Shown piece after piece: positions 5,221 through 44,017 of a stretch of 46,612 nucleotides of DNA. Source of the stretch: a virus (lineage: Duplodnaviria > Caudoviricetes). The DNA lies in IMG/VR virus record IMGVR_UViG_3300017700_000619, positions 1 through 46,612 of that record. The stretch is one strand, 5' to 3'. The stretch's first letter is position 1; every line of letters begins with the position of its first letter. The notes beneath the pieces were generated by a model. It did not search any database, was not told the DNA's origin, and was given only the letters and a program-made list of their open reading frames with translations. The position numbers and the translations under genes are program-made.

Positions 5221-8200
5221 CTACCTCCCCGCCACAAGCCCACGCGCATAGTCCACGCCGTCTTTCGGTTCCACATCGCCTTCCGCCACATCCGCTGCGT
5301 AGCCCAGCGGGCGGGCCAGAGCCTGGAACGGAACGCCGGTAAGCAGGGTTGCCAGGGTTAGCGTGTCCTTGATCGTGCGCGAGGCGTCGCCCTGGCCCAT
5401 GAAGTAGTCGTAGATATCGACCGGCACGCGGATGCTCGTCTCCAGTACGGAGATCGCTGGGGACGACAGGACGCGATCGTCATAGGGCTTGTCGTTGAAG
5501 GCGTTGACCCCGGCGATAGCTGCCGAGCCAGCGAACGGGACCATGGCGGCGGCCGTCTTGGCCTGCGTTCCGAAGAACCAGGAGAGCCAATACTCCAGTG
5601 GCTCGTCGTCATCGTCGGGCACGTCGCCGCGGATCATGTCGACGACAAGCTGGGCGAGCAGGGCCGGCGCGGCAAAGCCGACGATGTAGATGTAGGCCAG
5701 GCGACCCTTGCCCGACTTGAGGCCGAGATCGCGCATGGCCGAGCGGAACTCGGTGCTCAACTGGTTGGCCCACATATTGAAATAGCCGTACATGCCGAGC
5801 AGCAGTTTCTGCCAGCCCGTGCCCGTCTCGATGCGTGAGATGGACTCCGGGGTCTGGTCGCCCTGCGTCTGGCGCACCACGGCGTCGCCGAACTTCGCAG
5901 CGTCGTCCTCGCTCAGTCCGCGCGCCTTGGCTGACTCGTAACCGCCCAGCCAGACGATCACGTCCTGGATATTCTGCAGGGCGGTCTGGGCGAAATAGGT
6001 GTGGCGTTCGAACCAGTTTACAGCCTTGGCATACTTGCCCTTGGCTTCCACAATGCTGTCAATGGCGTCGCGCATGGCGATGGCCTGCGCGGTGGAGCGG
6101 TTCTCGATCGTCTTGGACGCCGCCACCACAGCCTCGTGTACGCCCTTGGGGTCGCGCAGGTAGCGCGCCAGCCCTTGGGCGATGTAGCGCTTGCGCACGC
6201 CCTTGTAGGCAGCGGCGTTGAACAGGCCCGTGGGCTGCTGCACCACGTTGGCGATGTTGGCGAACATCAGCCCCATGGAGGAGCGACGGCGCAGGCCGTT
6301 GGCGAAGGCGCTGACGCCGCGCCCCGCCTTGCCGCCCAGCGGCATCTCGTTGGTCTGGCGGGCCGAACGCACCAGCCACGGGCCGAGCAGATCCTCGCGG
6401 GCCGTCGGGTGGAAGTCGTCGAGGAGACGCTTGACCTTCTCGGTGGAGATGATGCGCAGCACGTCGCGGACGGGCGCCGCCATGTGGGCGAACTTGAGAA
6501 CCTTGTCGATGTGGCTACCAAGCAGTCGCAGGTCGAGGTGCAACACCTTGTTGTACTCGACGCGCGCTTGCGTGAAGCCCGAAGCCGGCGCCGGGAACAT
6601 GGTGCTGTCGTGGCTTTCCAGCGCGTTCTGGGCCGCGCGCATGGAGGCGTCGGCCACGTAGAAGTCGTCATAGACGGCCGGGATGTAGCCGCCGCGGAAC
6701 TCGCCGAACGGCGTCTGCACAGGATCGGCCGTGACCTCGGCGAAGTAGCGGCCGAACACATGGCGGTGGGCCTGTTGCGCCAGGGGCTTGATCTGCTCCA
6801 GCAGGTCCCACACGCCTTGCGCGAACTGGTAGTCCTCGACCGTGAGCACGCCCTCGCGCGCCATGCGGGTGACGAACTGGTCCCAACGGCCGGTATCCAG
6901 CGAGCCGTCCTGCCGCTCTGCACCCCAGCGACGACCGAGGAGCAGCTTGCGCTTGTTCGACTGGTTGCCGGTGTGCAGCAGGGCGTGCAGCAGTTCGGCC
7001 CGGTTGCGGAAGGTGTAGCCCAGTTCGGGCGCGGCAATCTGCTTGCCGTCCAGCTTCGCTTCCATCGGCGCGAACAGCTCGCGGAACCGGGTGATGTATT
7101 TGCCGAGGTCGAGCCTGTACTCTGTCGCGGCCTGGTTCACCGGCCGCCACAGGAACTTGGTCATGGGGCCGGGCGTGTCGCCGTCGACCGTGCGCGCCCA
7201 CGCCTCGACACGACGCAGGGCCGCCAGCCATGCCTCGCCGATGCGCAGGGTGCGCTGCCATGCCGTCGGCGCCTTGGTGATACCCTTCGCCCCGTCAGCG
7301 CCGCGGCTCTCCAGCAGCGTCGCGATCTGGGTAGCCACGTCGTCGAGATCGAGCTTCTGGCCGTTGATCTGGACGAGCATGCTCTCGCGCGACAGGTCCC
7401 AGAGCTGCACGACAACGTCGCGCATGCCGAGGAACTGCTCGACGGTCAGGTCCGTAAGCTTGCGGTTGTTGGTGAAGGCGGCCAGCAGGGTAGGCTCAAG
7501 GCTGGCGTAGAGTTGCGGGTCGTAACGCTTGACCGCGTCGAGATAGGTGACGGGCTGGTTCTTCATGCGCGCGAGGCCGTAGGCCGAGAGCACGGCGCGG
7601 GACGCCTGCACCAGGTCGAAGTTGCGGGACTTCGCCACGGTGTCGCGCTTGGCCGTGAGGATCTGCCGGAACTTGTTGAGCGCGGCGTCGCGCTCCTTCT
7701 GCTTGGCGTAGACTTCGCGGGCGATATGGAAGTTGAGAAGCTGGTCGCGCTTGGCGGCAGCAGCCCCCGCCAGATCGTTCTTCCTGACGGCTTCCTCGGC
7801 GGCGCGGCCGGCGCGGCGCTCCTGGGCTACGAATTTCGCCGGATTGAGCTTGCTCGCATTGAGGCGCGCAACGATACGGATAGCGGCCTCGCGAGCCGCT
7901 TCGTTGAGCAGCTTCCGCTCCCCGAGGGCTGCAGTAAGTGCAGCGTATTCGCCGGCAAGCACACGGGCGCGGAGTCCTGAGTGGACAGCCTCGTCCGCCG
8001 CGCGGGCGATAGAAGCGTCATCCACCAAATCGCCATAGCGCTCAAGCATGCGCTGATCCGTGATCCCACTTATTTTCTCCTTCGCGGGTTCCGCAGTTAA
8101 CAGGTCTTTCACCAGAGCGTCGCCGCTCTCGTAGCCCAGGATCGGGGCGAGAACGTCGGGGTGCAGGCCATCCTTGGCGAGCATACCATACTTGCCATAG

Positions 8201-11200
8201 CCCAGCGATTTGAAATCGACCGTGCCGTCTGGGTACATCTCGGTCAGGGCCGCAATCGACAGCTTCGGCGAGCCGGACACCAGCTTGCCGTCAGGACCAA
8301 ACACGGCGCTGAACGGTTCGACCTTCTGGCCCTTGCTGTCGATGCCGCGCGCCAGATAGTTGCGCGCCACGTTGACCTTCTCGGCCATGACCTCGGCGGC
8401 GACTTCTGCGCCCATCGCCTTGCGCTGCTCGCGCGCCTCGGCCTGCAGCCGGCGGATGGCCTTGGAGCGGGCATTGCCCAACCATTTGACATCGCGCAGG
8501 GAGCGCTGGGTCAATGTCGTCTCGGCCTCGGCCGTGGCGTTGGCGTTGGTGGACTGATAGTCGCGCCATTCCGTGTCGGTCATCGCCTCGGGCTTGACTG
8601 TGAACAGCGGGGCGAGAGCGTGGATGTCCTGCGCTTCGGCGATGTCCTGGGCCGAGGCGTACATGCGATCGAGGATCGAGGAGACTTCGGGCGTCAGCTC
8701 GACGGCCAGATCCTTGATTGTCTCGTACACGTTGAGAAGCCACTGGCGGAACTTGTCGAACATGCCGCGCAGCTTCGGGGTAGGGGCCTTGCCCTCCATG
8801 AAGTAGGCTTCGGTCAGCCGCGCGAACTCCTCGTGGAACGGGGTCTTTTCGGCGAACGACAGGGAGTTCCACACGTCCAGCGGGGTCGCGCCGGGCGGGA
8901 GGACTTTCTCGGGGTTGCGCATGGCCTCGTTGAAGAACTTGCGCTCCTCGGGGGAGAGCGGGTTCTCGGGCTGGAAAAGAGGCATGCCCTCCAGGGCTGC
9001 GGCCTTGAGTTCGGGGGTGATGGGGAGGGCGTGGAAGAACTGATGCTCGGCGCGGTATCCTTGCGCGGCCAGCTTAAGGCGTGCGGCGTCCGTGCGCAGC
9101 ATGATCTCCGTGGAGCCGACAACTGCGCCGTATTTTTTGCCCAGCTTGTTGGCTTCGTTCACCAGGATCTTGTCGTAGAATGCGCCACGATTGTCGCCGG
9201 TATCTTCCAGCTCCTGCCCGTTCTGGATGTTGCCCGGTATCCAAGCCACGGAATCATAGCCGTGTTCCGCAGCCCAGCGCACCATACGTTTCAGTACGAG
9301 AGCGGCCCAGCCGTTGTTTTTGAACGGGGCGTTGGGAACACCCTGTGCTACGCGCAGTTCAGCTTCCTGCGCCGCCAAAGATTCGCGGCGCAGCTCGTTT
9401 ATCTGGCTCAGAGCCTGCCCGATGGGCTCAAACTCGGCGTCCGAAATTCCGCCCATAAGCTCTGGGCGCATCGTCGATGTAAACAAAGGCGCCCAGGAGG
9501 CCGCTTTCGCGTCGTCTGTCTTGAGGTCTTCTCGGGCCTCGGCCAGTCGGTCACTGATGTGCGGAGGTACTAACGTTAGCGCGGTAGCGAACGCCTCGTC
9601 GGATCGGGCGACAAGCTTAACCAATTCTATGCCGGCGTCGGCGAACCTAGTTTCCGCGCGTATAACATCGTCTGACAACTTGGCGCGATCCGGCGCAGCA
9701 TCGCCCGCGTACCCCTGTTCCCGCCCCTTCTGATGCCAGTCGCTCTGCACTTCCTCGATAGCCAACACTCGCGAACCGTCCGCACCCTGGCGCGTTTTGA
9801 ACCGCACATGGGCCACCACGTTCGGCTCGTCCCAATGGGTGGACGGGCCTTTGACATCGGGCAGGGTGAGCAGGAGTTCGGTGTAGTCGGTGCCTCCGGG
9901 GAGGGTGAACGAGGGGAACTTTGTGCCGCCCTCCTCCAGCCCTTCGATCTGGCGCGAAATGTTGTCGGCGTTATTTTCGAGCATGCTGATGCGCGCGCGG
10001 ACTCCGGCGTCCCATTCGCTCTCGTCGCTGCCGTGCTCGGCGTATAGGTTTTCCAGGTCGCTGTTCGTGTCGTCGAGATCCTGCTGCAAATCGTCGGTGT
10101 TGCCGACCCGTACCTCCTCAACTTTCACACCATTGCTGGTGAGATAGTTCAGAACATCGGCTTTAGGGACACTGTCGGTATCCAGACTGTCGAGCCAGTC
10201 GAACAGCCCCGTCCACTCGATCTCCTCCTGCTTCACGCCGGCCGTGTTGCGCAACGTGGCTTTCCACTGTGCGGCCGGGGCCGACTTCTGCGTGGACTTC
10301 TCGACGGCGCGTTGCAGCGCCGAGTAGAAGATAGGGCCTTGCGCGTACTTGCCCTCGCGGTGCAGCTTGTACTGCTCGATCAGGTTCTTGTGGCGGTTGC
10401 GCAGCACGCGCACTTGGAGCGCTGCCTTGTCCGACGAGCGGTCAGGATAGACCGCCTCGGCGATGTCCTTGGGGCGTGCGCCCTGGGCCGACATAGCGAT
10501 AACGCGCAGGGTGTCAGGTGACAGGCCGCTGGGTGTCGGGGCTTTCTCGACAATGAAGCCTTTCGCGCGGATGCGCGAGAGCCACACCTTGACCATTTCG
10601 GGCGAGACAGTTGCGTCCTCGCCGCCGAGTTCCTGCGCGATTTCCTCGTTGCTGGCGCCATTGCGCGCCATAACGAAGGCGTTGAACTGGTCTTCCGAAA
10701 GTTGGTCGCGCGCCCGTTCGAGCGTGCCGTCCTCTATGAAGCGTTCTTCGCGGGGGAAGCTTTGGGCATAAACGCCAGCGTTAGCTGAACTGCTTCCTGC
10801 TCCAGCGGTGTCAGCTCCTCGTCCATCTCCGACATTAGCCGGGTTTCCAGGTCGGACGATTGCGGTGACGCGGCGTCGTTTGTGGGTTGCGGGAGATCCG
10901 GCGAAATCGACATTGTCGATTGTGGCATTGCTCAACTCCAGGGCGAAGCCCGGCGCCTTCTCCGGGTTGATAAGCGTGAACACTTGAATGGCAGTCGTTT
11001 CTGAAACGTTAGCGCCTTGCAGCGAATCATAGAACGTCTCAATCCTCGCCTCGTATCCGAGGTCGAAGTTCTTCAACATGAACTCGTAGAACTTGGCTTG
11101 GCTGTCGCCCGATCCTGTGAACACCAGATAGTCGGGCTTGTAGCGCTCGACGTAAGCCTGCAGCGCCACGATTGTCTTGGTAAACACGATGCGGCCCTGA

Positions 11201-14200
11201 CGGGCCTGTTCCGGCGTGACTTTGCCCGTGGGTCGCATCAGCGAGCCCTTGAACATCATGTCCACGGACACGCCTTTGAACTCGCCTTTTTCCTTGGAGC
11301 CCGGCGAAATATTTATCTTGATGTCGGCCGACTTCTGGTCTGGCGTCGACTTGATCTGGAGTTGGCGGGCGCCGCCCAGCAGGGCGACCTCCTCGACTTG
11401 CGTGTCGTACCACTCGCCGCGATCCTGCGGCGTCGCGCCGCGCGCCGCGCGGAAGCTGGAGCTATCGAGCTGCGCGTAGGACTGCTGGTCAGTCAGGGCG
11501 CCCGACCTGTCGTACCAGTGTGCATCCTCGATCGTCTGCCCGTAGCGGATCTGTGCGTGGTCCATGCGCAGGTCGGCATCCGGCAGGTTCTGGTCGCCCA
11601 ACAGCATCCGCGCCTCGGCGTGGGTGTACTCGGCGGGGAAGGCGATGACCCGGCCCTTGTCGGTCTTGAACAGGCGGATAACCGGCAGCTTGCGGTTGTC
11701 GAGCTGCTTCTGCATCAGCGCCTTGACCTGCTCGTCCGTCGCGTTCGGCAGGTAGTTCTCGTAGAAGGTCAGCGCCCAGAGCGTATCTGCCTGCGCGTAG
11801 GACTGGCCCGGCCCCGGCTCGCCCGGTGCAACCTTGAGTTGCGTCAGCAGTTCCTGCGTGTCGTCGAGCAGGCCCTGCTCGTCCGGCGTCAGCGTCTCGC
11901 TGTTGCGGGTGCGCTCCAGCAGTTTGGACGCGGCCGTGACATGGACCTCCAGGAAGTGGTGGCCGATCTCGTGCAGGAAGGTCGAGAGGTCGGCTGTGCG
12001 CAGCAGGCCCAGCGTTGCGGTGCTGGGGGCGTATTCGCCTTTATTGCGTTGATCGAGCTTGGTGGTCGTGCGCCCTTCGGCGCTCTTGTTGTTCGGGACG
12101 CCGCGCGTTTCCTTCCACGCCTTGCGCAGGCGCGAGGCTTGCGGCGCGCTCAGGTTCAACTGCTCAGCGATATCGCCCGTGCGCGCGTCGGGGTTGGCGT
12201 CGAGGTAGGCGAAACCTGCCTCCTGCGCCATACCTTCGGCGGTCTGCCCGGCCGGGGCTTGCTCGTTGCCGGTGCCGTTGTTGGCGGTCTGCTCGCGCAC
12301 AGCCTCGCCCGCCAGCATCTCGCCGACGATCTTGAGCGGGTATTGCTCGAACGCTTCCTCCGGCGTGATGCCAAGGCGCGCGGCCAGCGTGCCGTAGCCG
12401 TTGGCGGTGAGCTGCGAATAGAGCCGGTTCGGCTCGCCGACAAAGCGGCCCGCCGCCTTGAGTTGCTGCTCAACCGTGGCGCGCACAGTCTCGACGCCGG
12501 CGGCGAAGCCCTCTTTCTCCTGCGCAACCTGCGTCAGTTTCTCGGCCTGGTGCAGCAGCCGCTGGCGCTGCTCCTCCGGCATGGCCTGCTGTTCCGTCTC
12601 GGTCGCAGCGAACGGCGACGTGGTGACGTTCTGGAGGAACACGTCGGAGTTGTCGCGGCCCGCCACCTTCTCGGTGAACGTGCCGACCGGGATCTGCAGC
12701 GGGGCGCCGGAAGCCAGCGAAGTCTCGATCTGGGCTTCTACGCCCATCTCGGTCGCCAGGGCTTCGGGCGTCTTGCCCTCGCTCTGGGCGATCTGGGCGA
12801 AGGCTTCGGGCTGGATATAGACCGAGGTTAGCGGCGTGTCCTGCGCCATCTCGTCGATCGTCTTGGTGAACTCGGCCGGGTTGCGCTCGCGCAGTTTGCT
12901 CTCGCTCGCCGCGGTCACGAGTTCCTTGAGGGCGTCGATGCCGCCCTCGGCCATGGTCTTCTCGCGCGCCTCGCGCTCCTTGCCCTTCTGGACCTGATCG
13001 CCGACCATGTCGGCGGTCTTGATGACCGAGGTCTGCAGGACAGTCCCAACGGCCGTGGCGATCAGCGTCTGGAACGCAGCCTCAGGCCGTTCCGCCAGGA
13101 ACTCGCCGACCGTCTTTTCGGGGTTGAGATAGGCCCACTCGGTCGCGTCCTGCAACAGGGTCGCGGCCTGTTCGGTCGGAACTTCGGCGGCAAGCTGGCG
13201 CAGGACGACCTGGCCGAACGGGGTTTTCTCGGCGATGTCCTTGACCAGCAGGTGGAAGGGCAGACGCTCGGTCAGGCTCTCGATCATGCCCTGCTGCCCG
13301 CCGAACATGGCGGCGTCGAACGGCGCCAGTCCCTCATCGCGCGCCTGGCCGTAGGAGATGCCGCCCGTGGTCGCGCTCATGCCGAGCAACGCCAGTTCCG
13401 GGTTGCCGGTACCGATGGCCGCCGCCATCCATGCGAGCGAGGAGCCGGCCGAACGCACGCCCGACAGTACGCTGTCGGCCGTCAGGTTGCCGGTCTGGGG
13501 TTGGAGCTTGTCGCCCAGCTCCTTGCCGAACTTGCGACCGCCTTCGGCCCACGCAGCGACGCGGGGCAGGAGGGCGCTGGGGTCCTGCGCGGGGTTGCCC
13601 TCGCGGGCGATCCGGTTGGCTTCCTCAGGGTTGCCGGCGATGGCAGCAAGCGCAGGGGACGGCGAGCGTAGGAACTCGTCCAGGAGTTCGGCGGCGCCCT
13701 GGAGGATGCCTGACGGGGCCTGGATAGCGGCGTCGACAACGCCCGCAGCCGCAGCTTGCGGCGCGCCAAGGATGACCTTGGGGCCGGAGTCAGCAACAGC
13801 CTCGCTGGTGTTTTTGTAGAACCCGCGCATCCCGGCGCGGAATGTCTCTTCCGGCGTCAGCGTGCGCAGGGTCTTTTCGATGCCTGTAAGCGCCTTGACA
13901 TCGTCGGCGGCAAGACGGGCGAAGTCCTGGTCGGTGTATTTCTTGCGCAGGATTGGCGTGTCTTTGGTCTGGGTCAGGACGCCGAGTTCGCGCGCCATGC
14001 GCGAGACTTCCTCGGAACCGAGCGCGCGGAGCGCGGCGGCGGGCTTGCCCGTCAGGGTCGCCAGCCGGTTGATCGTGGCCTCCTGGTCGGCGTTGTCGTC
14101 CAGGGTGGCGTCGAGCGCGGCGCGCACCTTGCCGTCTTGTTCGGGACCGCCGCGGCCGTAGACTGGCGTAGCGGGCGGGCCTGTCTCAGGGACAAGAGGC

Positions 14201-14466
14201 TTGCTCAGATCCTCGCCGGGGCGCTGCTCGGAGATGCCGAGCGGGGTGTAGTCGCGCGCCGGGTCGCTGACCGACGGCACAATGGTAGGATCAGCCGTGG
14301 ACGTGAAGTCGGGGCGCTGGGTCGGCGCCGGGCGCGGAGAGGAGCCCTGCACGAGCGCGGAGGCTTTCTCGCGCAGCACGTTAAGCCGCGTCTGACGCTG
14401 CTCGTACTGGCGTTGTTCGTACTTCCGCTGGTCCTGCAGACCTTTGGTGAAATCGTCTTCCGGCAT
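5221..14466 (-). CDS. Giant ejection / internal virion protein (large polyvalent protein) with a split zincin-like peptidase domain and inserted cargo modules
   Basis: 3081 aa; lies after two other internal proteins and before the tailspike; HEIGH at aa 832 and HEEFAR...EGKAP at aa 1878; HTH modules. Confidence 0.85.
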   Translation of the reverse strand: MPEDDFTKGLQDQRKYEQRQYEQRQTRLNVLREKASALVQGSSPRPAPTQRPDFTSTADPTIVPSVSDPARDYTPLGISEQRPGEDLSKPLVPETGPPATPVYGRGGPEQDGKVRAALDATLDDNADQEATINRLATLTGKPAAALRALGSEEVSRMARELGVLTQTKDTPILRKKYTDQDFARLAADDVKALTGIEKTLRTLTPEETFRAGMRGFYKNTSEAVADSGPKVILGAPQAAAAGVVDAAIQAPSGILQGAAELLDEFLRSPSPALAAIAGNPEEANRIAREGNPAQDPSALLPRVAAWAEGGRKFGKELGDKLQPQTGNLTADSVLSGVRSAGSSLAWMAAAIGTGNPELALLGMSATTGGISYGQARDEGLAPFDAAMFGGQQGMIESLTERLPFHLLVKDIAEKTPFGQVVLRQLAAEVPTEQAATLLQDATEWAYLNPEKTVGEFLAERPEAAFQTLIATAVGTVLQTSVIKTADMVGDQVQKGKEREAREKTMAEGGIDALKELVTAASESKLRERNPAEFTKTIDEMAQDTPLTSVYIQPEAFAQIAQSEGKTPEALATEMGVEAQIETSLASGAPLQIPVGTFTEKVAGRDNSDVFLQNVTTSPFAATETEQQAMPEEQRQRLLHQAEKLTQVAQEKEGFAAGVETVRATVEQQLKAAGRFVGEPNRLYSQLTANGYGTLAARLGITPEEAFEQYPLKIVGEMLAGEAVREQTANNGTGNEQAPAGQTAEGMAQEAGFAYLDANPDARTGDIAEQLNLSAPQASRLRKAWKETRGVPNNKSAEGRTTTKLDQRNKGEYAPSTATLGLLRTADLSTFLHEIGHHFLEVHVTAASKLLERTRNSETLTPDEQGLLDDTQELLTQLKVAPGEPGPGQSYAQADTLWALTFYENYLPNATDEQVKALMQKQLDNRKLPVIRLFKTDKGRVIAFPAEYTHAEARMLLGDQNLPDADLRMDHAQIRYGQTIEDAHWYDRSGALTDQQSYAQLDSSSFRAARGATPQDRGEWYDTQVEEVALLGGARQLQIKSTPDQKSADIKINISPGSKEKGEFKGVSVDMMFKGSLMRPTGKVTPEQARQGRIVFTKTIVALQAYVERYKPDYLVFTGSGDSQAKFYEFMLKNFDLGYEARIETFYDSLQGANVSETTAIQVFTLINPEKAPGFALELSNATIDNVDFAGSPATHKRRRVTAIVRPGNPANVGDGRGADTAGAGSSSANAGVYAQSFPREERFIEDGTLERARDQLSEDQFNAFVMARNGASNEEIAQELGGEDATVSPEMVKVWLSRIRAKGFIVEKAPTPSGLSPDTLRVIAMSAQGARPKDIAEAVYPDRSSDKAALQVRVLRNRHKNLIEQYKLHREGKYAQGPIFYSALQRAVEKSTQKSAPAAQWKATLRNTAGVKQEEIEWTGLFDWLDSLDTDSVPKADVLNYLTSNGVKVEEVRVGNTDDLQQDLDDTNSDLENLYAEHGSDESEWDAGVRARISMLENNADNISRQIEGLEEGGTKFPSFTLPGGTDYTELLLTLPDVKGPSTHWDEPNVVAHVRFKTRQGADGSRVLAIEEVQSDWHQKGREQGYAGDAAPDRAKLSDDVIRAETRFADAGIELVKLVARSDEAFATALTLVPPHISDRLAEAREDLKTDDAKAASWAPLFTSTMRPELMGGISDAEFEPIGQALSQINELRRESLAAQEAELRVAQGVPNAPFKNNGWAALVLKRMVRWAAEHGYDSVAWIPGNIQNGQELEDTGDNRGAFYDKILVNEANKLGKKYGAVVGSTEIMLRTDAARLKLAAQGYRAEHQFFHALPITPELKAAALEGMPLFQPENPLSPEERKFFNEAMRNPEKVLPPGATPLDVWNSLSFAEKTPFHEEFARLTEAYFMEGKAPTPKLRGMFDKFRQWLLNVYETIKDLAVELTPEVSSILDRMYASAQDIAEAQDIHALAPLFTVKPEAMTDTEWRDYQSTNANATAEAETTLTQRSLRDVKWLGNARSKAIRRLQAEAREQRKAMGAEVAAEVMAEKVNVARNYLARGIDSKGQKVEPFSAVFGPDGKLVSGSPKLSIAALTEMYPDGTVDFKSLGYGKYGMLAKDGLHPDVLAPILGYESGDALVKDLLTAEPAKEKISGITDQRMLERYGDLVDDASIARAADEAVHSGLRARVLAGEYAALTAALGERKLLNEAAREAAIRIVARLNASKLNPAKFVAQERRAGRAAEEAVRKNDLAGAAAAKRDQLLNFHIAREVYAKQKERDAALNKFRQILTAKRDTVAKSRNFDLVQASRAVLSAYGLARMKNQPVTYLDAVKRYDPQLYASLEPTLLAAFTNNRKLTDLTVEQFLGMRDVVVQLWDLSRESMLVQINGQKLDLDDVATQIATLLESRGADGAKGITKAPTAWQRTLRIGEAWLAALRRVEAWARTVDGDTPGPMTKFLWRPVNQAATEYRLDLGKYITRFRELFAPMEAKLDGKQIAAPELGYTFRNRAELLHALLHTGNQSNKRKLLLGRRWGAERQDGSLDTGRWDQFVTRMAREGVLTVEDYQFAQGVWDLLEQIKPLAQQAHRHVFGRYFAEVTADPVQTPFGEFRGGYIPAVYDDFYVADASMRAAQNALESHDSTMFPAPASGFTQARVEYNKVLHLDLRLLGSHIDKVLKFAHMAAPVRDVLRIISTEKVKRLLDDFHPTAREDLLGPWLVRSARQTNEMPLGGKAGRGVSAFANGLRRRSSMGLMFANIANVVQQPTGLFNAAAYKGVRKRYIAQGLARYLRDPKGVHEAVVAASKTIENRSTAQAIAMRDAIDSIVEAKGKYAKAVNWFERHTYFAQTALQNIQDVIVWLGGYESAKARGLSEDDAAKFGDAVVRQTQGDQTPESISRIETGTGWQKLLLGMYGYFNMWANQLSTEFRSAMRDLGLKSGKGRLAYIYIVGFAAPALLAQLVVDMIRGDVPDDDDEPLEYWLSWFFGTQAKTAAAMVPFAGSAAIAGVNAFNDKPYDDRVLSSPAISVLETSIRVPVDIYDYFMGQGDASRTIKDTLTLATLLTGVPFQALARPLGYAADVAEGDVEPKDGVDYARGLVAGR

Positions 14467-16197
14467 TTACTCGTCCACCAAATAGTCGCCCGCCTCGAAT
14501 ACGTCCACCAGAGCGCGCCGGTAGTTCTCCGGCGTCGCTTCCCAGCCTTGTTCCTGCATGTACGTGAGTGCGCGTTGCCCGTCCGGCGACGTGGTCGGCA
14601 CGCTCGGCGCGATGCCGCGCCCCCGCATGAAGTCGGCCGTTTGCTTGCGGTCGTAGCCGCTCACGAACTGCGCAGCGTTGCGGCGCACGAAAGCGTCCAT
14701 CTCGGCCGGCGGGATGATCTTGCCCGTGGCGGCCTGCTGCTTCGCCACACCTGTCTCAAGCGCCGAGCGTAGGCGAGCGAGCTTGACCCGGTCGGCATTG
14801 TCGAGATCGTCGCTGTAGACCTTGAGGCCGAAGTCGGCGGCGATCGACTGGAACAGATCGTTATCGATCTTGCCGGCGGCGAGCCCGGCTTTCTCCTGCT
14901 CCTCGGTGAGCTGCCGCTTGCGGGTCAACACCTGGTTGGTGAGGGCTCGCCCGTAAAACGGCTCCAGCGCCGTGATCTGCGTCGGAGTCATCTTACGGAC
15001 TTGCTCGTCGTCATTCATCAGTGCGCCCCACGCGGCCCAGGCTGCGTCGGACACGGTCGCGCCGCTTTCGGCACGGGACAGGAAAGTCGATTTCAGGCTG
15101 GCCTGCGTATCGCCGGGGAGAGACAGCCAAGCGCTCGTACCTTCCACCGAGGCCAGAGATTGGCCGCCGAGTAGCTGTTTCCAAACCGCGTTGACATTGC
15201 CTGCATTCTGCTCGGTCTCCTGGAACTCGTGGTCCTGGATACGCTGCGAGAGTTCCGCACGCGCAGCTTTCAGTTGCTCCGGTTGGTCGGCGTATTTCGC
15301 CCGAAGCTCTGAATCAATCTTGGCCTTGTTAACGGGCGCATTCGTGCGAAGCGGGTTCTTCGCCAGAACCTCGTCGACGGCGCCGATGGCCTCGGCCGCG
15401 CTGAACGCGGTGTCCAGCTTGGCCTTGATGGCCTTGGCGTCGATCGCGTTGTAATCGGTTTCATGGGCGGCGAAGTACGCCTTGGCGCCGGCAATGTTCT
15501 TGCCGTCCATCATCGTCTCGATAACGCCCGTGTGCATCTTGCCCATGGTCGCCTTGACCGCCACGTCCAGGCTCTCGCCGTCGAGACCAGCGGCCTGGGC
15601 CGTTGCGGTAGCGGCGTCGCGCGCCCGGCTGGTGTAGAAGGGCGCGGCCTTGCCAAGGGGGTCGGAAGCGATATCGCTCTGGGACTGGACGATCGTGGCC
15701 TCGCGCACGCTTTGCGCATAGACGACCGATTGCTCGGCCTCGTAAGCCATTGTTTCGTTGCCGAACTTGGCGCGCAGGTCCGCGGCCAGCATGCCGAACT
15801 GTTCGCGCACGGCCTGGTTGCCGAGCTTGTTGGTGATCTCCGACAAGTCCTTGTCGAACTGCTCGCCATAGTAGGCGCCGAGGGGCTTGTCGTTAACGCC
15901 CTTGACCGCAGCACCACCCTTGAGCCGCGTGTAGCCGAGGTCCTTGTCGTATTTCAGACGCTGGGCTGCAGCGCTCGCCTGGTTGAAAGCGTCGTTCAGG
16001 ATGACCTTGTTGGCCTTCTCCTGCTCCTTGGCGAAGAAATCGGCAGCGACGCTGGCACCCTTCTGGATGCCTTGGCCGAGCTGCTGGATCTGCTCGCCGG
16101 GCGCGCGGGCCTGCGCTACCGACAGGGGGCTGTCGGCGCGACCGCGGCGTACATCGGGCGCGACCTGGAACTGATCGTAGACGGGAACCTGTACCAT
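14467..16197 (-). CDS. Internal virion (ejection) protein
   Basis: 576 aa, helical, Ala/Gln-rich; MVQVPVYD start; podovirus synteny. Confidence 0.75.
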   Translation of the reverse strand: MVQVPVYDQFQVAPDVRRGRADSPLSVAQARAPGEQIQQLGQGIQKGASVAADFFAKEQEKANKVILNDAFNQASAAAQRLKYDKDLGYTRLKGGAAVKGVNDKPLGAYYGEQFDKDLSEITNKLGNQAVREQFGMLAADLRAKFGNETMAYEAEQSVVYAQSVREATIVQSQSDIASDPLGKAAPFYTSRARDAATATAQAAGLDGESLDVAVKATMGKMHTGVIETMMDGKNIAGAKAYFAAHETDYNAIDAKAIKAKLDTAFSAAEAIGAVDEVLAKNPLRTNAPVNKAKIDSELRAKYADQPEQLKAARAELSQRIQDHEFQETEQNAGNVNAVWKQLLGGQSLASVEGTSAWLSLPGDTQASLKSTFLSRAESGATVSDAAWAAWGALMNDDEQVRKMTPTQITALEPFYGRALTNQVLTRKRQLTEEQEKAGLAAGKIDNDLFQSIAADFGLKVYSDDLDNADRVKLARLRSALETGVAKQQAATGKIIPPAEMDAFVRRNAAQFVSGYDRKQTADFMRGRGIAPSVPTTSPDGQRALTYMQEQGWEATPENYRRALVDVFEAGDYLVDE

Positions 16198-16763
16198 CAG
16201 TAAGGACCCATGCGGCCAGTGTTGGCGGCCGGCGTCGGAATGGCGTTCTTGCCCATGGCGCCCACGCTGTTGAGCCCGTACCAGGTGCCTGCGACGCTGC
16301 CCGCTTCCGTGAGGAAGGAGGAGAACGCATTCATGCCGGGGTTGATCGAGCCTGCCGTCGCCTTGTTAACGCGCGACGAGCCGCGCAGGTTCGAGGCGTC
16401 CATCTTGTGGCCCCAGGCTTCGCGCACGGCGTTGGCCTTGATCGTGTCGGCGTCCGCGTCGCCGAGCAGGTCGGTTGACGTAATGACAGAAACCGGCGAG
16501 CCGAACGACAGGTCTACGTTGTTGGCGGCATAGCCTGCGATCTGGCGGCCCTTGAGGGCGGCCGTCTGCAAGCGGGAGTTCTGGTATTGCTTTTCGCCTT
16601 TGGCGAGACTGTCGCGCGCCCGGCCCTCGGCCAGCCCCGCGTTGATCTCGTCCATTTCGGCCTGCATCTTCAAGGCCATCTTTTCGCCGGTCGAGGCGTA
16701 ATACGTGCCGACCGTCTTGGCCGCGCCGCCGGCGGCCATAGCGATTACGGATGACATTGCCAC
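16197..16763 (-). CDS. Small internal virion (ejection) protein
   Basis: 188 aa, Ala/Gly-rich, with the Q.A.YAANNVDLSFGSP motif typical of T7 gp14-like proteins; synteny. Confidence 0.75.
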   Translation of the reverse strand: MAMSSVIAMAAGGAAKTVGTYYASTGEKMALKMQAEMDEINAGLAEGRARDSLAKGEKQYQNSRLQTAALKGRQIAGYAANNVDLSFGSPVSVITSTDLLGDADADTIKANAVREAWGHKMDASNLRGSSRVNKATAGSINPGMNAFSSFLTEAGSVAGTWYGLNSVGAMGKNAIPTPAANTGRMGPY

Positions 16764-21699: not shown

Positions 21700-22377
21700 T
21701 TATTTCAGCGTTGGGGATGCGTCGTAGAAGCCTTTCGCGGACGGCTTGGCGCCGCCCGTGACGATCTTCCCGTCGTTGCTCATTGCCTTGCCGACCTTGA
21801 CGGCCCAGCGCAGGAGTTCGGGGTGGTAGCCAAGGCCGCTCTGATCGAGCAGGCTCTTGAGTTCGGGCGTCCCGAACGCCTCGAATGTCTTGTAAGCGAG
21901 CGCGCGGTTCTCCTCGAACTTCTCGCCGCCAAATTCGGTGTCCGCCATCGACTGGCTTTTCCAGCCCTCGATCGCGGAATCATTCGCCTCCTTGAGGCGG
22001 GTGTTGAAGCTCTCGGACTGCTTGAGGCCGAGGTCGACGAGGGCCTGGGCCGCCTCTTGCGGCAGCTTGTTGGCCTTCGCGTATTCCTTGACTTCCGCCA
22101 GCAGCGGGTTGTCCTTGGCGACGCCCTCGGGGAGTTTGAACTCCTCGTAAGTGATAGCTTCGGCGGCAGGGTCTACCTTGGCCGGGTCCGCGGCGGGGTC
22201 GACTACCGCGGCTGCGGGATCGACTACCGCGGCTGCGGGATCGACTACCGCGGCTGCGGGATCGACAACGGCCGCAGCCGGGTCAACAACAGCAGCGGGA
22301 TCGACGACTACAGCGGCGGCCGGGTCAGCAACGGCGGCTACAGGTTCAACCGGTGCGGTAATTGCGCTGTCCGTCAC
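21700..22377 (-). CDS. Capsid scaffolding protein with N-terminal AAAVVDP repeats
   Basis: Acidic helical protein with D.EFGG.K and GLG.HPE motifs, directly upstream of the capsid gene. Confidence 0.8.
   Translation of the reverse strand: MTDSAITAPVEPVAAVADPAAAVVVDPAAVVDPAAAVVDPAAAVVDPAAAVVDPAAAVVDPAADPAKVDPAAEAITYEEFKLPEGVAKDNPLLAEVKEYAKANKLPQEAAQALVDLGLKQSESFNTRLKEANDSAIEGWKSQSMADTEFGGEKFEENRALAYKTFEAFGTPELKSLLDQSGLGYHPELLRWAVKVGKAMSNDGKIVTGGAKPSAKGFYDASPTLK
22199..22330. repeat. 21-nt tandem repeat (three perfect copies at 22199-22261 plus degenerate copies) encoding AAAVVDP
   Basis: TCGACTACCGCGGCTGCGGGA x3. Confidence 0.9.
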
Positions 22378-34338: not shown

Positions 34339-34410
34339 CCCACAAGTTCGGCTTGTGGGTCAATAGCATTTATTTTCGGGAACCGGATTGACTTGGTTTC
34401 GGTTGTCGTG
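34339..34410. promoter_or_regulatory. Divergent early promoter region with operator-like palindrome CCCACAAG-N5-CTTGTGGG
   Basis: TTGACC (minus strand, 34363) overlaps the palindrome at 34339-34359; TTGACT (plus strand, 34388). Confidence 0.6.
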
Positions 34411-34446
34411 TTTGGGTACAAGTCGAAGGTTGTTGGAGGACAGCAA

Positions 34447-35025
34447 GTGACGGTTGAAATCAAATCGCTCTTTACCGGAGCAGTTCTTAAGACAGTTGAC
34501 GGCGCCAACCTGCGCGGCGCCGACCTGCACGGCGCCGACCTGCACGGCGCCGACCTGCACGGCGCCGACCTGTACGACGCCGACCTGCGCAGCGCCAACC
34601 TGCGCGGCGCCAACCTGCGCGGCGCCAACCTGTACGACGCCGACCTGCGCAGCGCCAACCTGCGCGGCGCCAACCTGCGCAGCGCCGACCTGTACGGCGC
34701 CAACCTGCGCGGCGCCGACCTGCGCGGCGCCGACCTGCACGGCGCCGACCTGCAAGGCGCCGACCTGCACGGCGCCGACCTGTACGGCGCCGACGACGCG
34801 AAACAAATCGCGGAGAAGTTGGTCGCTTCGGTTACGCGCAGCGACGGCTACGAGTTCTTCACATTCACTCTGCAGAATGGCGAACCCCACATACTGGCGG
34901 GCTGCCGCTGGTTCACGATCGCCGAGTTCCGCGCGCATGCCGAGGAGACATACCCCGGCACCGCCAAGCAAGTCGAGACTAACCAGATCCTCGACTTCCT
35001 TACTCTGCGGCTCGCTGCACAGTGA
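34447..35025 (+). CDS. Pentapeptide repeat protein
   Basis: 19 complete xA(D/N)Lx repeats plus a C-terminal AGCRWFT domain; SD GGAGGA before GTG 34447. Confidence 0.9.
   Translation: MTVEIKSLFTGAVLKTVDGANLRGADLHGADLHGADLHGADLYDADLRSANLRGANLRGANLYDADLRSANLRGANLRSADLYGANLRGADLRGADLHGADLQGADLHGADLYGADDAKQIAEKLVASVTRSDGYEFFTFTLQNGEPHILAGCRWFTIAEFRAHAEETYPGTAKQVETNQILDFLTLRLAAQ
34501..34794 (+). repeat. 15-nt tandem repeats encoding the pentapeptides
   Basis: GGCGCC(G/A)ACCTG(C/T)nn units. Confidence 0.95.
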
Positions 35026-37325: not shown

Positions 37326-38041
37326 CCAAAACCCCCGGCCTACTCCCCCAGAGCTGCCGGGATGAACTCGCCCGCGCCATGCTAATCCCCGATCGTAACC
37401 AGCGGCTCGACGCGATCGACAAGGCAAGAGAACGAGCCGCTTACAACAACCCATCCCTGTTCAAGGAAACCAGTTCAATGCAAGTCAAACTCAAAAATGT
37501 CCGCCTCGCCTTCGGCGATGGCCTGTGGGAAGCCAAGACGGTGCAGGGCGAGGGCAAACCCGCCTTCTCGTGCTCCTTCCTGTTGACGCCGGATCACCCG
37601 CAGCTTGAGGAGATCCGCGACGCCATGAAGGCGGTTGCCAAAGAGAAGTGGGGCGCCAAGGCCCAGGAAGTCTACGGCCTGCTGTCGAAACAGGACCGCC
37701 TGGCGCTGCACGACGGCGACAACAAGGCCAACTACGACGGCTACCCCGGCAACTTCTTTATCTCGGCCCGCAATGCCGCGCGCCCCACGGTCGTCAACAA
37801 GGACCGCTCCGCGCTCACGCAGTCGGACGGCGTCGTCTACTCGGGCTGCTACGTCAACGCCATCGTCGACTTCTGGGCGATGGACAACAAGTACGGCAAA
37901 CGCCTGTGCTGCTCGCTCAGCGGCGTGCAGTTCTATGCCGACGGCGATTCGTTCTCTGGCGCCACCATGGCGACGGCGGATGATTTCGACGACCTGGGCG
38001 CCGATGCCGGCGCTTCGGGTGCAAAAGCTGACGCTTGGTAG
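37322..38041 (+). CDS. DUF2815 single-stranded DNA-binding protein; probable main start at 37478, in-frame upstream start at 37322
   Basis: NVRLAF, YSGCYVNA, L.GVQF..DGD.F.G, acidic tail ending in Trp. Confidence 0.88.
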   Translation: MTKTPGLLPQSCRDELARAMLIPDRNQRLDAIDKARERAAYNNPSLFKETSSMQVKLKNVRLAFGDGLWEAKTVQGEGKPAFSCSFLLTPDHPQLEEIRDAMKAVAKEKWGAKAQEVYGLLSKQDRLALHDGDNKANYDGYPGNFFISARNAARPTVVNKDRSALTQSDGVVYSGCYVNAIVDFWAMDNKYGKRLCCSLSGVQFYADGDSFSGATMATADDFDDLGADAGASGAKADAW

Positions 38042-38052
38042 GAGGCAGACAC

Positions 38053-38349
38053 ATGGATTTCGGAGACGCAATTCGCTGCCTAAAGCAGGGCGAGAAGCTG
38101 GCGCGTGAGGGCTGGAACGGCAAGAGCATGTTCATTGTGCTCATGCCGGCGCTGTACCTGCCGCCGTACAACACCCAAGAGCCTGGCGCCAAGGTCAACG
38201 ACCGCACCGCCAAACATATCGGCTACGACACGCCGCTCGACTCGCAACCCTACTTTGCGATGAAGACGGCAACCGGGCAATGGCAACCCGGTTGGCTCGC
38301 GTCGCAAGCCGACATGCTCGCTGATGATTGGAGGATTGTCGGCAAATGA
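38053..38349 (+). CDS. tad2: DUF2829 / Tad2-family immune-signal sponge
   Basis: M.FG.A...LK.G....R.GWNGK.MF ... W.ASQ.DMLA.DW signature; SD GGAGG. Confidence 0.85.
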   Translation: MDFGDAIRCLKQGEKLAREGWNGKSMFIVLMPALYLPPYNTQEPGAKVNDRTAKHIGYDTPLDSQPYFAMKTATGQWQPGWLASQADMLADDWRIVGK

Positions 38350-38573
38350 TCCACAAGCCTCGCAACAAGGCCCACGTTCAACGCATGGCGCGGAAACGCG
38401 CCATGCAACTAGCCCGCACCGCGAACTGCTCACCGTTCGGCCGCAAGCTGGTCTGGACACCCATGCGGATGCCAGATGGCACGACCAAGCGCGTGCAGGT
38501 TGGCGTCGAACGCACCGACGAGCAGGGCGATTACCGCGCGAAACACTGGAACAAGGAACAAGCCCATGGGTGA
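38346..38573 (+). CDS. Hypothetical basic protein
   Basis: ATGA-coupled; 75 aa. Confidence 0.55.
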
Positions 38574-38853
38574 ACCGGGGGTCGGCCACAACTCCGGCGA
38601 TGAACTCGCCGCACAACTGACCCAGGCTGCGCGCGAGAAGCTGCGCCAGACCGTGTCGAAAATCGAGAAGCTGGAGGAGGAGAAAGCCGAAGTCTCCGGC
38701 CAGATCAAGGACACCTACCAGGAAGCCAAGTCGATGGGGTACGATGTGAAAGCGTTGCGCAACGTCGTCAGGCTTCGCAAGAAAGACCGCCAGACGCGCG
38801 AAGAGGAAGAGGCAATCCTCGACACCTACATGCTCGCGCTCGGCGAAATTTAG
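38566..38853 (+). CDS. gapR: GapR (DUF2312) nucleoid-associated protein homolog
   Basis: [11 protein letters not shown]...IKD.Y.EAKS.GYD.K.LR.V..LRK......EEE..LD.Y..ALG. Confidence 0.9.
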
Positions 38854-43186: not shown

Positions 43187-43309
43187 GATGAATACTCCTT
43201 CAATGCTTGAAGTACTTCACAAGTACTCGCTTGTAAAGGGCAGTTGAAAATAAATCTTGACAGGGTGCGCGTTACAAGGCGTTGTTGTGAGGAAGGTTCG
43301 GAGGGCGCG

Positions 43310-44017
43310 TTGCAGTATTTCGGCGGCAAACACAGAGTGGCGGAAAAACTGGTTGCTTTTATGCAGCCGTTTATCGACCGCGCAGACGCCTACGTGGAGC
43401 CGTTCGTAGGGGGCGCCAACATCCTCCGGCGCGTAAAGCACCCCAACCGCTACGCCTCTGACGCTAACGCGCACCTGATCTGCCTGTACCAAGCCTTGCA
43501 GCAAGGCTGGGAGCCGCCGGCAAACCTATCCGCGGACGAGTACAAAGCCTTGCGAAACGAACCTGTAGGCAACCCGCTCGTTGCTTTCGCCGGCTTCGGC
43601 TGTTCGTTCGCGGGGAAGTGGTTCGGCGGCTACGCGAAAGACGACGGGCAGCGGCGCTATGCTAGCGCCGCCCGAAATGTCTTGCTCAAGAAAGCGGAAG
43701 ACACGCAAGGCGCTAAGTTTTCAGCGGCCGGCTACGCCGACGTAGTCGTGCCGAGCCGTGCGGTAGTGTACTGCGACCCTCCATACGCCGGGACAACTGG
43801 CTATTGCGGGGTGCCGGGCTCGTTTGACTCCGCAAAGTTCTGGGAGTGGGTGCGCGAGATAACCCGCCTAGGCGCTACCGTATTCGTCAGCGAGTACACC
43901 GCGCCGGGTGATTTCATAGAAGTTCTCAGCATCGCCACCAAGACGGAGATCCGCACGTCCGCTAACGGGCGCGAGGACCGCGTCGAACGGCTGTTCACCT
44001 ACAGCGAGTTCGCCTAA
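43310..44017 (+). CDS. DNA adenine methyltransferase (Dam/D12 class)
   Basis: Y.GGK, EPF.GG.N and DPPY motifs; probable TTG start at 43310 after SD GGAGG. Confidence 0.9.
   Translation: MQYFGGKHRVAEKLVAFMQPFIDRADAYVEPFVGGANILRRVKHPNRYASDANAHLICLYQALQQGWEPPANLSADEYKALRNEPVGNPLVAFAGFGCSFAGKWFGGYAKDDGQRRYASAARNVLLKKAEDTQGAKFSAAGYADVVVPSRAVVYCDPPYAGTTGYCGVPGSFDSAKFWEWVREITRLGATVFVSEYTAPGDFIEVLSIATKTEIRTSANGREDRVERLFTYSEFA

Follow-up and report, generated by a model that had tools for sequence, protein, structure and literature searches.

Large proteins of disparate domains, LPD domains among them, that are encoded among phage virion genes are known as polyvalent proteins, and in 2017 their domains were predicted to be released autoproteolytically by a zincin-like metallopeptidase (MPTase) (PMC5512222). 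The parts of that paper covered here also mention variable inserts between two conserved MPTase helices, cite P1 DdrB as a processed precedent and draw an analogy to RNA-virus polyproteins. A second relevant system is Bbp10 of phage BPP-1, annotated as 'crystallin beta/gamma motif' or lysin and entered as an IVP-D (T7 gp16-type) protein in Table 2 of PMC4819975, a source covered in part. Here we analyse the window, a Caudoviricetes DNA of 46,612 nucleotides (nt) (IMG/VR record IMGVR_UViG_3300017700_000619, positions 1 to 46,612), and within it a Bbp10/IVP-D-like polyvalent virion protein of 3,081 amino acids (aa), encoded at 5221-14466 on the minus strand, the strand of every feature below unless another is given. 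In this protein, which belongs to a known class, a scaffold carries swappable cargo modules, and a short hydrophobic-x-Gln tag links them.

The window is a BPP-1-like podophage genome with terminase, portal, GP7-type capsid, nozzle and two internal virion protein (IVP) genes, followed by the 3,081-aa open reading frame (ORF) and then a tail fibre. Bbp10 occupies the same position after the nozzle and two IVP genes (PMC4819975, in the part covered) and matches the window protein with 34% identity over aa 1860-2655, in the C-terminal scaffold. Scaffold similarity and synteny place the protein in the Bbp10/IVP-D group, and by this homology it is likely packed in the virion and injected. Like the polyvalent proteins of PMC5512222, as characterized in the sections covered, it is a large virion-module protein, encoded after the portal, capsid, nozzle and IVP genes, with LPD22, an HExxH motif plus Glu helix, and variable ART/GNAT/PBECR/LPD cargo in its homologs (ART-PolyVal, PBECR3, GNAT, LPD3 and LPD23); LPD22 and a sigma70 region-4 helix-turn-helix (HTH) score above cut-off in the window protein itself.

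Tags at module junctions

The first-pass annotation had proposed that a Gln-ending motif recurs at every module edge of this protein as a polyprotein cleavage code, and every residue and coordinate that it listed is correct (VREQ726, GMAQ748, LDQ806, YAQ892/999/1235/1376, LFQ1832 and HEIGH 832-836, with E833). The edges at 806, 892, 999, 1235, 1376 and 1832 do carry tags with homolog counterparts, but the tag is not exclusive to junctions. All five collinear relatives have a tag at the positions matching 892, 999, 1376 and 1832, and 4/5 have one matching 1235, whose module is replaced in P0007. Of the two sites proposed as weaker, VREQ726 (12289-12300) is a degenerate N-edge junction site that aligns with FVEQ, YDQ, LPQ and YKQ in relatives and forms the edge of a swapped segment, while GMAQ748 was rejected as a junction site, since it is not conserved in the collinear relatives.

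Between VREQ726 and the peptidase lies an HTH-like module (aa ~725-809; 12040-12293), for which HTH_23 scores below cut-off; LDQ806 (12049-12057) was assigned as the pre-peptidase site by sequence and homolog comparison. QSYAQ892 (11791-11805), the first cargo site inside the peptidase, likewise has homolog counterparts. It is followed by a 107-aa module (893-999; 11470-11790) ending in QSYAQ999 (11470-11484), a 236-aa module (1000-1235; 10762-11469) ending in VYAQ1235, with DUF6934 as a weak lead only, a sigma70 region-4-like HTH (1236-1376; 10339-10761; PF08281, E 2.3e-7, above cut-off) ending in KYAQ1376, and a mobile module (1377-1832; 8971-10338; FYSxL...EEVQSDWHQ...GxPLF) ending in PLFQ1832. 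No NCBIfam or Pfam match above cut-off was obtained for modules 893-999, 1000-1235 and 1377-1832, and their Atlas scores were <0.9.

Within this one protein the tag pattern is only suggestive: four copies of YAQ have P=0.002 in shuffles, yet six rare tripeptides reach four copies, compared with ~2 in shuffled sequences. We count the pattern as real because homologs show it. The homolog set comprised the best 120 of 808 matches, of which 116 with all three anchors were scored. A [L/F/Y/M]-x-Gln tag lies within 14 aa before the FYSxL module in 33/33 copies and in 14/14 upstream tail clusters, against a null of 0.091, and before the peptidase in 22/28 last-module tail clusters (null 0.078), the latter count being lowered by wrong anchor picks. 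This cluster count was used instead of a pre-peptidase count of 104/116, which is inflated by a DITQ in the peptidase strand region. At the N edge, [LFYMVI]xQ is present in 108/116 homologs (null 0.28). The enrichment at homolog domain boundaries anticipated by the first-pass annotation is thus observed. Swap points located without regard to the motif fall, on the N side, exactly at the Gln in 18/69 cases and within 6 aa of it in 58/69, and motif-blind alignment starts in cargo lie near a tag in 35 of 89 cases, compared with 13.6 ± 3.3. P0004 gains a module and P0007 has one replaced, both at tags, and a DNA swap in a further relative, detailed below, spans 12040-12293. The tag therefore marks module junctions family-wide, a real junction code with exceptions.

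The mobile module also occurs as short separate proteins (in the best 120 of 199 matches), so that one homologous position can be compared in two contexts. Gln follows GxPLF in 33/34 polyprotein copies but in only 6/87 stand-alone copies, where GxPLF itself is kept, and this argues that the Gln tracks the polyprotein context rather than the module fold. The difference persists after dereplication at 70% (23/24 versus 5/73) and among stand-alone copies on contigs of at least 20 kb (1/27), and it extends to the upstream tag, found in 32/32 polyprotein copies versus 12/67 stand-alone ones. A quick module tree, with long branches, requires at least three fused/free changes. The FYSxL...EEVQSDWHQ module forms a widespread family, fused and stand-alone (P0121-P0240), that lacks a Pfam or NCBIfam model; P0009 carries three tandem copies of it. 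Its invariant-looking acidic/Gln motif suggests an enzyme.

Cargo within a zinc-peptidase-like domain

Two features of zincin-like MPTases are found in the window protein: HEIGH 832-836 provides the HExxH helix, and HE 1878-1879 the Glu on a following helix. Both the HExxH and the later third-ligand HE helix are intact in 116/116 homologs scored. The distance between them has a median of 55 residues, whereas it is 1,047 in the window protein and 1,249-2,120 in six others, which places modules 893-1832 inside the peptidase, a location that the first-pass account of the modules had missed. The N-half (11815-12048), comprising a beta-hairpin, the HEIGH helix (11959-11973) and a second helix, was delimited by homolog anchors and a model, and the C-half (8587-8901), with the third-ligand helix HEEFA 1878-1882 (8821-8835), by homolog anchors and a two-chain model. 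Judged by these sequence anchors, the protein's own zinc-peptidase-like domain holds five tags and ~950 cargo residues in one of its loops. Most homologs have their cargo upstream of an intact peptidase, and seven homologs with almost no cargo still keep one tag just before it. As to a single origin of the split form, six such proteins group with a fragment in one clade (98), and P0009 and P0049 fall outside it.

A structural model of a cargo-free homolog puts the tag in a low-confidence linker between folded units and the insertion point in the loop before the third-ligand helix. When the window's two peptidase halves were predicted together with Zn, the score was 0.73, compared with 0.02 for the best control; the mark applied is reached by 116/157 solved pairs and 2/215 mismatched pairs. 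Contact agreement was at least 57%, partner pLDDT was at least 62, and the third-ligand helix packs on H832/H836. The halves are thus predicted to reassemble around the cargo; since the two parts of one divided domain are prone to reach the mark through their likeness, the score supports such reassembly and does not show it.

Zincin-like MPTases also have a three-stranded sheet with an N-terminal helix; the cargo-free model shows two strands before the HExxH helix, and the best sequence match is SprT-like Spartan (E 0.06). Sequence and fold searches found no solved relative, and weak fold rows to zincin-type folds at Z ~4 were discounted and not taken as evidence. A duplicated helix flanking the nested cargo on both sides was considered and rejected, as no alignment supports it. 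The whole-length alignment A1, in which the N-half of the peptidase came out at the wrong place, was left out of the analysis. A Pfam scan of 62 window ORFs found no other peptidase family. Some homologs carry an LPD23 module with a second HExxH as cargo (P0007, ~1326-1600; P0009, ~690-980).

Proposed processing and other possible roles for the tag

The presence of tags at junctions, their enrichment in homologs and their tie to the polyprotein context make processing by the resident HExxH domain the leading reading. On this reading, to which the sequence data lead us to give about an even chance, the tag would be a cut site of the protein's own zinc-peptidase-like domain, freeing separate pieces. 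In the ancestor, a single site would have separated the N-scaffold from the rest of the protein, peptidase plus C-scaffold, and new modules would be retained when tags stay at their edges. If cut in the head or after ejection, the protein would yield fragments of ~86, 9, 12, 26, 16, 50 and 138 kDa (leaving Gln726 out of the count), and its peptidase would end up as two chains. The bond cut could lie either after the Gln or before the hydrophobic residue. Most proteases cleave poorly in front of Pro, and the residue that follows a zincin cut is usually hydrophobic; since some sites have Pro after the Gln, the cut may precede the hydrophobic residue.

Several observations weigh against self-cleavage. 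Pro follows the Gln in 12/127 curated sites, including LFQ1832-P. C-side swap points are blurred by indels (26/90 within 3 aa), and alignment ends are weakly enriched near tags, 25/108 compared with 16.5 ± 3.6 and below the null maximum of 28. Tag density in cargo is 1.30x expected, not above the 1.52x of the N-scaffold, and five [LFYM]xQ lie inside modules of the window protein (876, 919, 977, 1462 and 1688; aa 876-1688). In front of the peptidase, one clade reads LFA, YAA or FAA, and no tag is present there in P0111/P0113 and L017. If the protein were cut at 892 and 1832, the peptidase would itself be broken. No significant zincin match was obtained for this domain by sequence or fold (fold thresholds E<=0.001 or Z>=8), and one ORF of the window bears a protease label of its own, as described below. 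In the literature searched, no cleavage of any family member is reported. The main contrary evidence is the N4 virion RNA polymerase (vRNAP), which is packaged unprocessed according to PMC5512222 and, as a recombinant protein, gave 'no evidence of degradation' in the portion of PMC13434306 covered.

All the positional evidence fits binding as well as cutting, and it is conceivable that the tag is an uncut docking or threading mark, bound by, for example, the HExxH domain, a packaging partner or the ejection channel, with the protein handled module by module as beads on a string. N4 vRNAP, which stays whole, has been modelled in this way (PMC13434306, in the part covered), and a peptidase threaded by 950 residues would be easier to keep if uncut. 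No partner has been identified, however, and the catalytic Glu, both His residues and the third-ligand HE are kept in 116/116 homologs, as expected of an active enzyme. In addition, two cargo-free proteins, L023 (~10001, HExxH decayed) and L041 (~3051, altered third-ligand helix), lack the tag before the peptidase, although these are two cases only. We regard docking or threading as unlikely on balance.

A different protease, from the host or a separate phage gene, could instead cut at the tag, the HExxH domain acting elsewhere, e.g., on a host target. The pattern resembles the head-maturation sites of T4 gp21, which are of the hydrophobic-x-Glu type, and the window ORF at 21700-22377 is labelled 'protease' by phrog_458. 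The parts of PMC5512222 covered allow an effector role for MPTases, and those of a phi24B preprint (10.64898/2026.04.10.717836) propose peptidoglycan attack. Nevertheless, the 21700-22377 ORF occupies the scaffold-gene position ahead of the capsid gene and gave no Pfam match, no run of such tags is present at the ends of the capsid and scaffold proteins, and the same tag is found in phages of very different hosts. We consider cutting by another protease quite unlikely. The ORF at 21700-22377 has an Ala/Val/Asp/Pro repeat tract and is probably a scaffolding protein.

The tag could also be a recombination relic, a peptide with no role of its own that arises when an out-of-register crossover at the scaffold edge copies the edge sequence. 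Swaps do break at the tag. In P0030, P0032 and P0051 a 14-aa scaffold tail recurs at a later site (12-13/14 identical; 4/94 proteins at >=7), which shows one way for the tag to spread, and the Gln after GxPLF could derive from the recipient's edge. Against a relic, tags persist at old junctions while flanks and codons diverge, tag codons varying among sites, and two sites from one protein resemble each other no more than sites from different proteins do (42/1466 versus 45), so that homogenisation of tags within a protein was rejected. Small modules in the peptidase loop without flanking tags (P0031, P0032, P0081, L002, L017 and L021) count against it too and indicate that the tag is not needed for insertion. 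The proposal that the tag aids module gain and loss is accordingly upheld for the swaps and the three duplicated scaffold tails, and not as a requirement, since some modules have inserted where no tag is present. Separate lineages (P0032, P0081 and L017) have a similar ~100-aa module in the peptidase loop, without flanking tags.

The 15-nt string shared by the two QSYAQ sites, which the first-pass annotation had likened to a target-site duplication, also fails to support a relic. It is present, as described, at 11791-11805 (copy 1) and 11470-11484 (copy 2), 321 nt apart, and it is within chance: the identity has P=0.031 given QSYAQ twice, some exact 15-mer repeat is found in 154/500 codon-permuted genes, and a repeat longer than 15 nt lies off junctions, at aa 408/1332. 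Module 893-999 is old: all five collinear relatives have it at this position, between flanks that have diverged and with no empty site among them, and the repeat is therefore not a target-site duplication. Overall, we hold a relic origin to be very unlikely.

In a relative found in two runs of one study, 12040-12293, from Gln726 to three codons past Gln806, is replaced by 248 other bases, which may be a different module or a very diverged copy of the HTH-like one; beside the replaced segment are 85 differences over 10141-12039. At window position 12319, loose ends in runs X2 and X4, read by eye, point to another relative that departs from the scaffold at codon 717 and reaches FDQ at the position of Gln726. 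Runs X3-X5, whose shares were small, were left out of any statement on habitat.

Finally, a side effect of chance or composition in flexible linkers, which would draw on how common a three-residue pattern is and on its unremarkable overall density in cargo, is scarcely credible, being largely refuted by 33/33 against a null of 0.09 and by 33/34 versus 6/87 at one homologous position.

Gene setting and comparison with known systems

Outside the modules, the conserved N-terminal scaffold contains the LPD22 domain (aa 116-204; 13855-14121; E 1.3e-8, above cut-off), and the conserved C-terminal scaffold (5224-8586), IVP-D-like by phrog_9880 and Bbp10 similarity, has one hydrophobic segment (aa 2923-2941). 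The upstream IVP genes, of 576 and 188 aa, are at 14467-16763, after the nozzle gene (phrog_10475 and phrog_418). On the plus strand, the window also encodes a dCMP deaminase (1563-2009), a pentapeptide-repeat ORF (34393-35025), a protein with a Tad2-like (Thoeris anti-defence 2) domain (38035-38349; PF11195, E 2.6e-26), a GapR-like DNA-binding protein (38476-38853) and a D12-class adenine methyltransferase (43244-44017). ARAGORN places a doubtful tRNA-Pro inside the pentapeptide-repeat ORF on the opposite strand (34541-34630, minus).

When self-processing of phage polyvalent proteins was predicted in 2017, no sites were given; the tag supplies exact positions, so that the prediction is now directly testable, including in three phages in culture, Caulobacter phage Jess A, Cobetia phage Carin1 and BPP-1. 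Predicted sites are LTQ587 and LAQ791 in Jess A, where the catalytic residue is E821, and LNQ903, LFQ1492 and YNQ1605 in Carin1 gp32; in BPP-1 Bbp10, E798 accompanies the two tags given below. The tag also gives a rule for dividing giant unannotated proteins into working modules, candidates for effectors of early infection or counter-defence, and the nested architecture shows that kilo-residue cargo can be accommodated between the metal ligands of a peptidase domain. The sections of PMC5512222 covered describe neither a cleavage motif or sites nor multi-domain inserts of 1,000-2,100 residues within the peptidase. The hydrophobic-x-Gln tag and the nested peptidase form are likewise not described in the literature searched, which left out most subscription papers. 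In the portions covered, the phi24B preprint places a polyvalent protein in virions without mapping cuts, and PMC9503650, PMC8951688 and 10.1101/2021.05.28.446129 contain nothing on processing.

N4 vRNAP (gp50) resembles the window protein in being IVP-D-related, its cargo coming after an N-domain and before an HExxH domain, which a large helical C-domain follows, but it has one fixed cargo and is reported intact, in contrast to the variable modules of the window family (PMC13434306, in the part covered). A looser parallel is offered by the short Gln-containing code at domain joints and the embedded protease of RNA viruses. There, polyproteins are cut by 3C/3CL proteases after Gln; the likeness would be one of analogy, the protease class and the proteins being unrelated, and here we infer the cutting.

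The closest comparison is with Bbp10. Residues 700-1000 of Bbp10 are a seed of CLCA_X, a family profile-related to CLCA domains that cleave themselves at a conserved site (PMC3650047, in the part covered); the activity is shown there for animal CLCA only, and the link to phage members is by profile. No processing data or virion proteomics for a Bbp10-type protein were found in the literature searched. We tentatively suggest, as possible rather than probable, that Bbp10-family ejection proteins are self-cutting Gln-code polyproteins and that, in the present clade, ~1,000-2,100 effector residues loop out between zinc ligands and would be cut out at the tags that flank them, so that a two-chain enzyme stays behind on an ejection scaffold. 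Bbp10 itself has FDQ608 and FYQ768 around a single cargo module of 160 aa, upstream of a nearly unsplit peptidase (gap 65), whereas the window protein has four modules nested inside.

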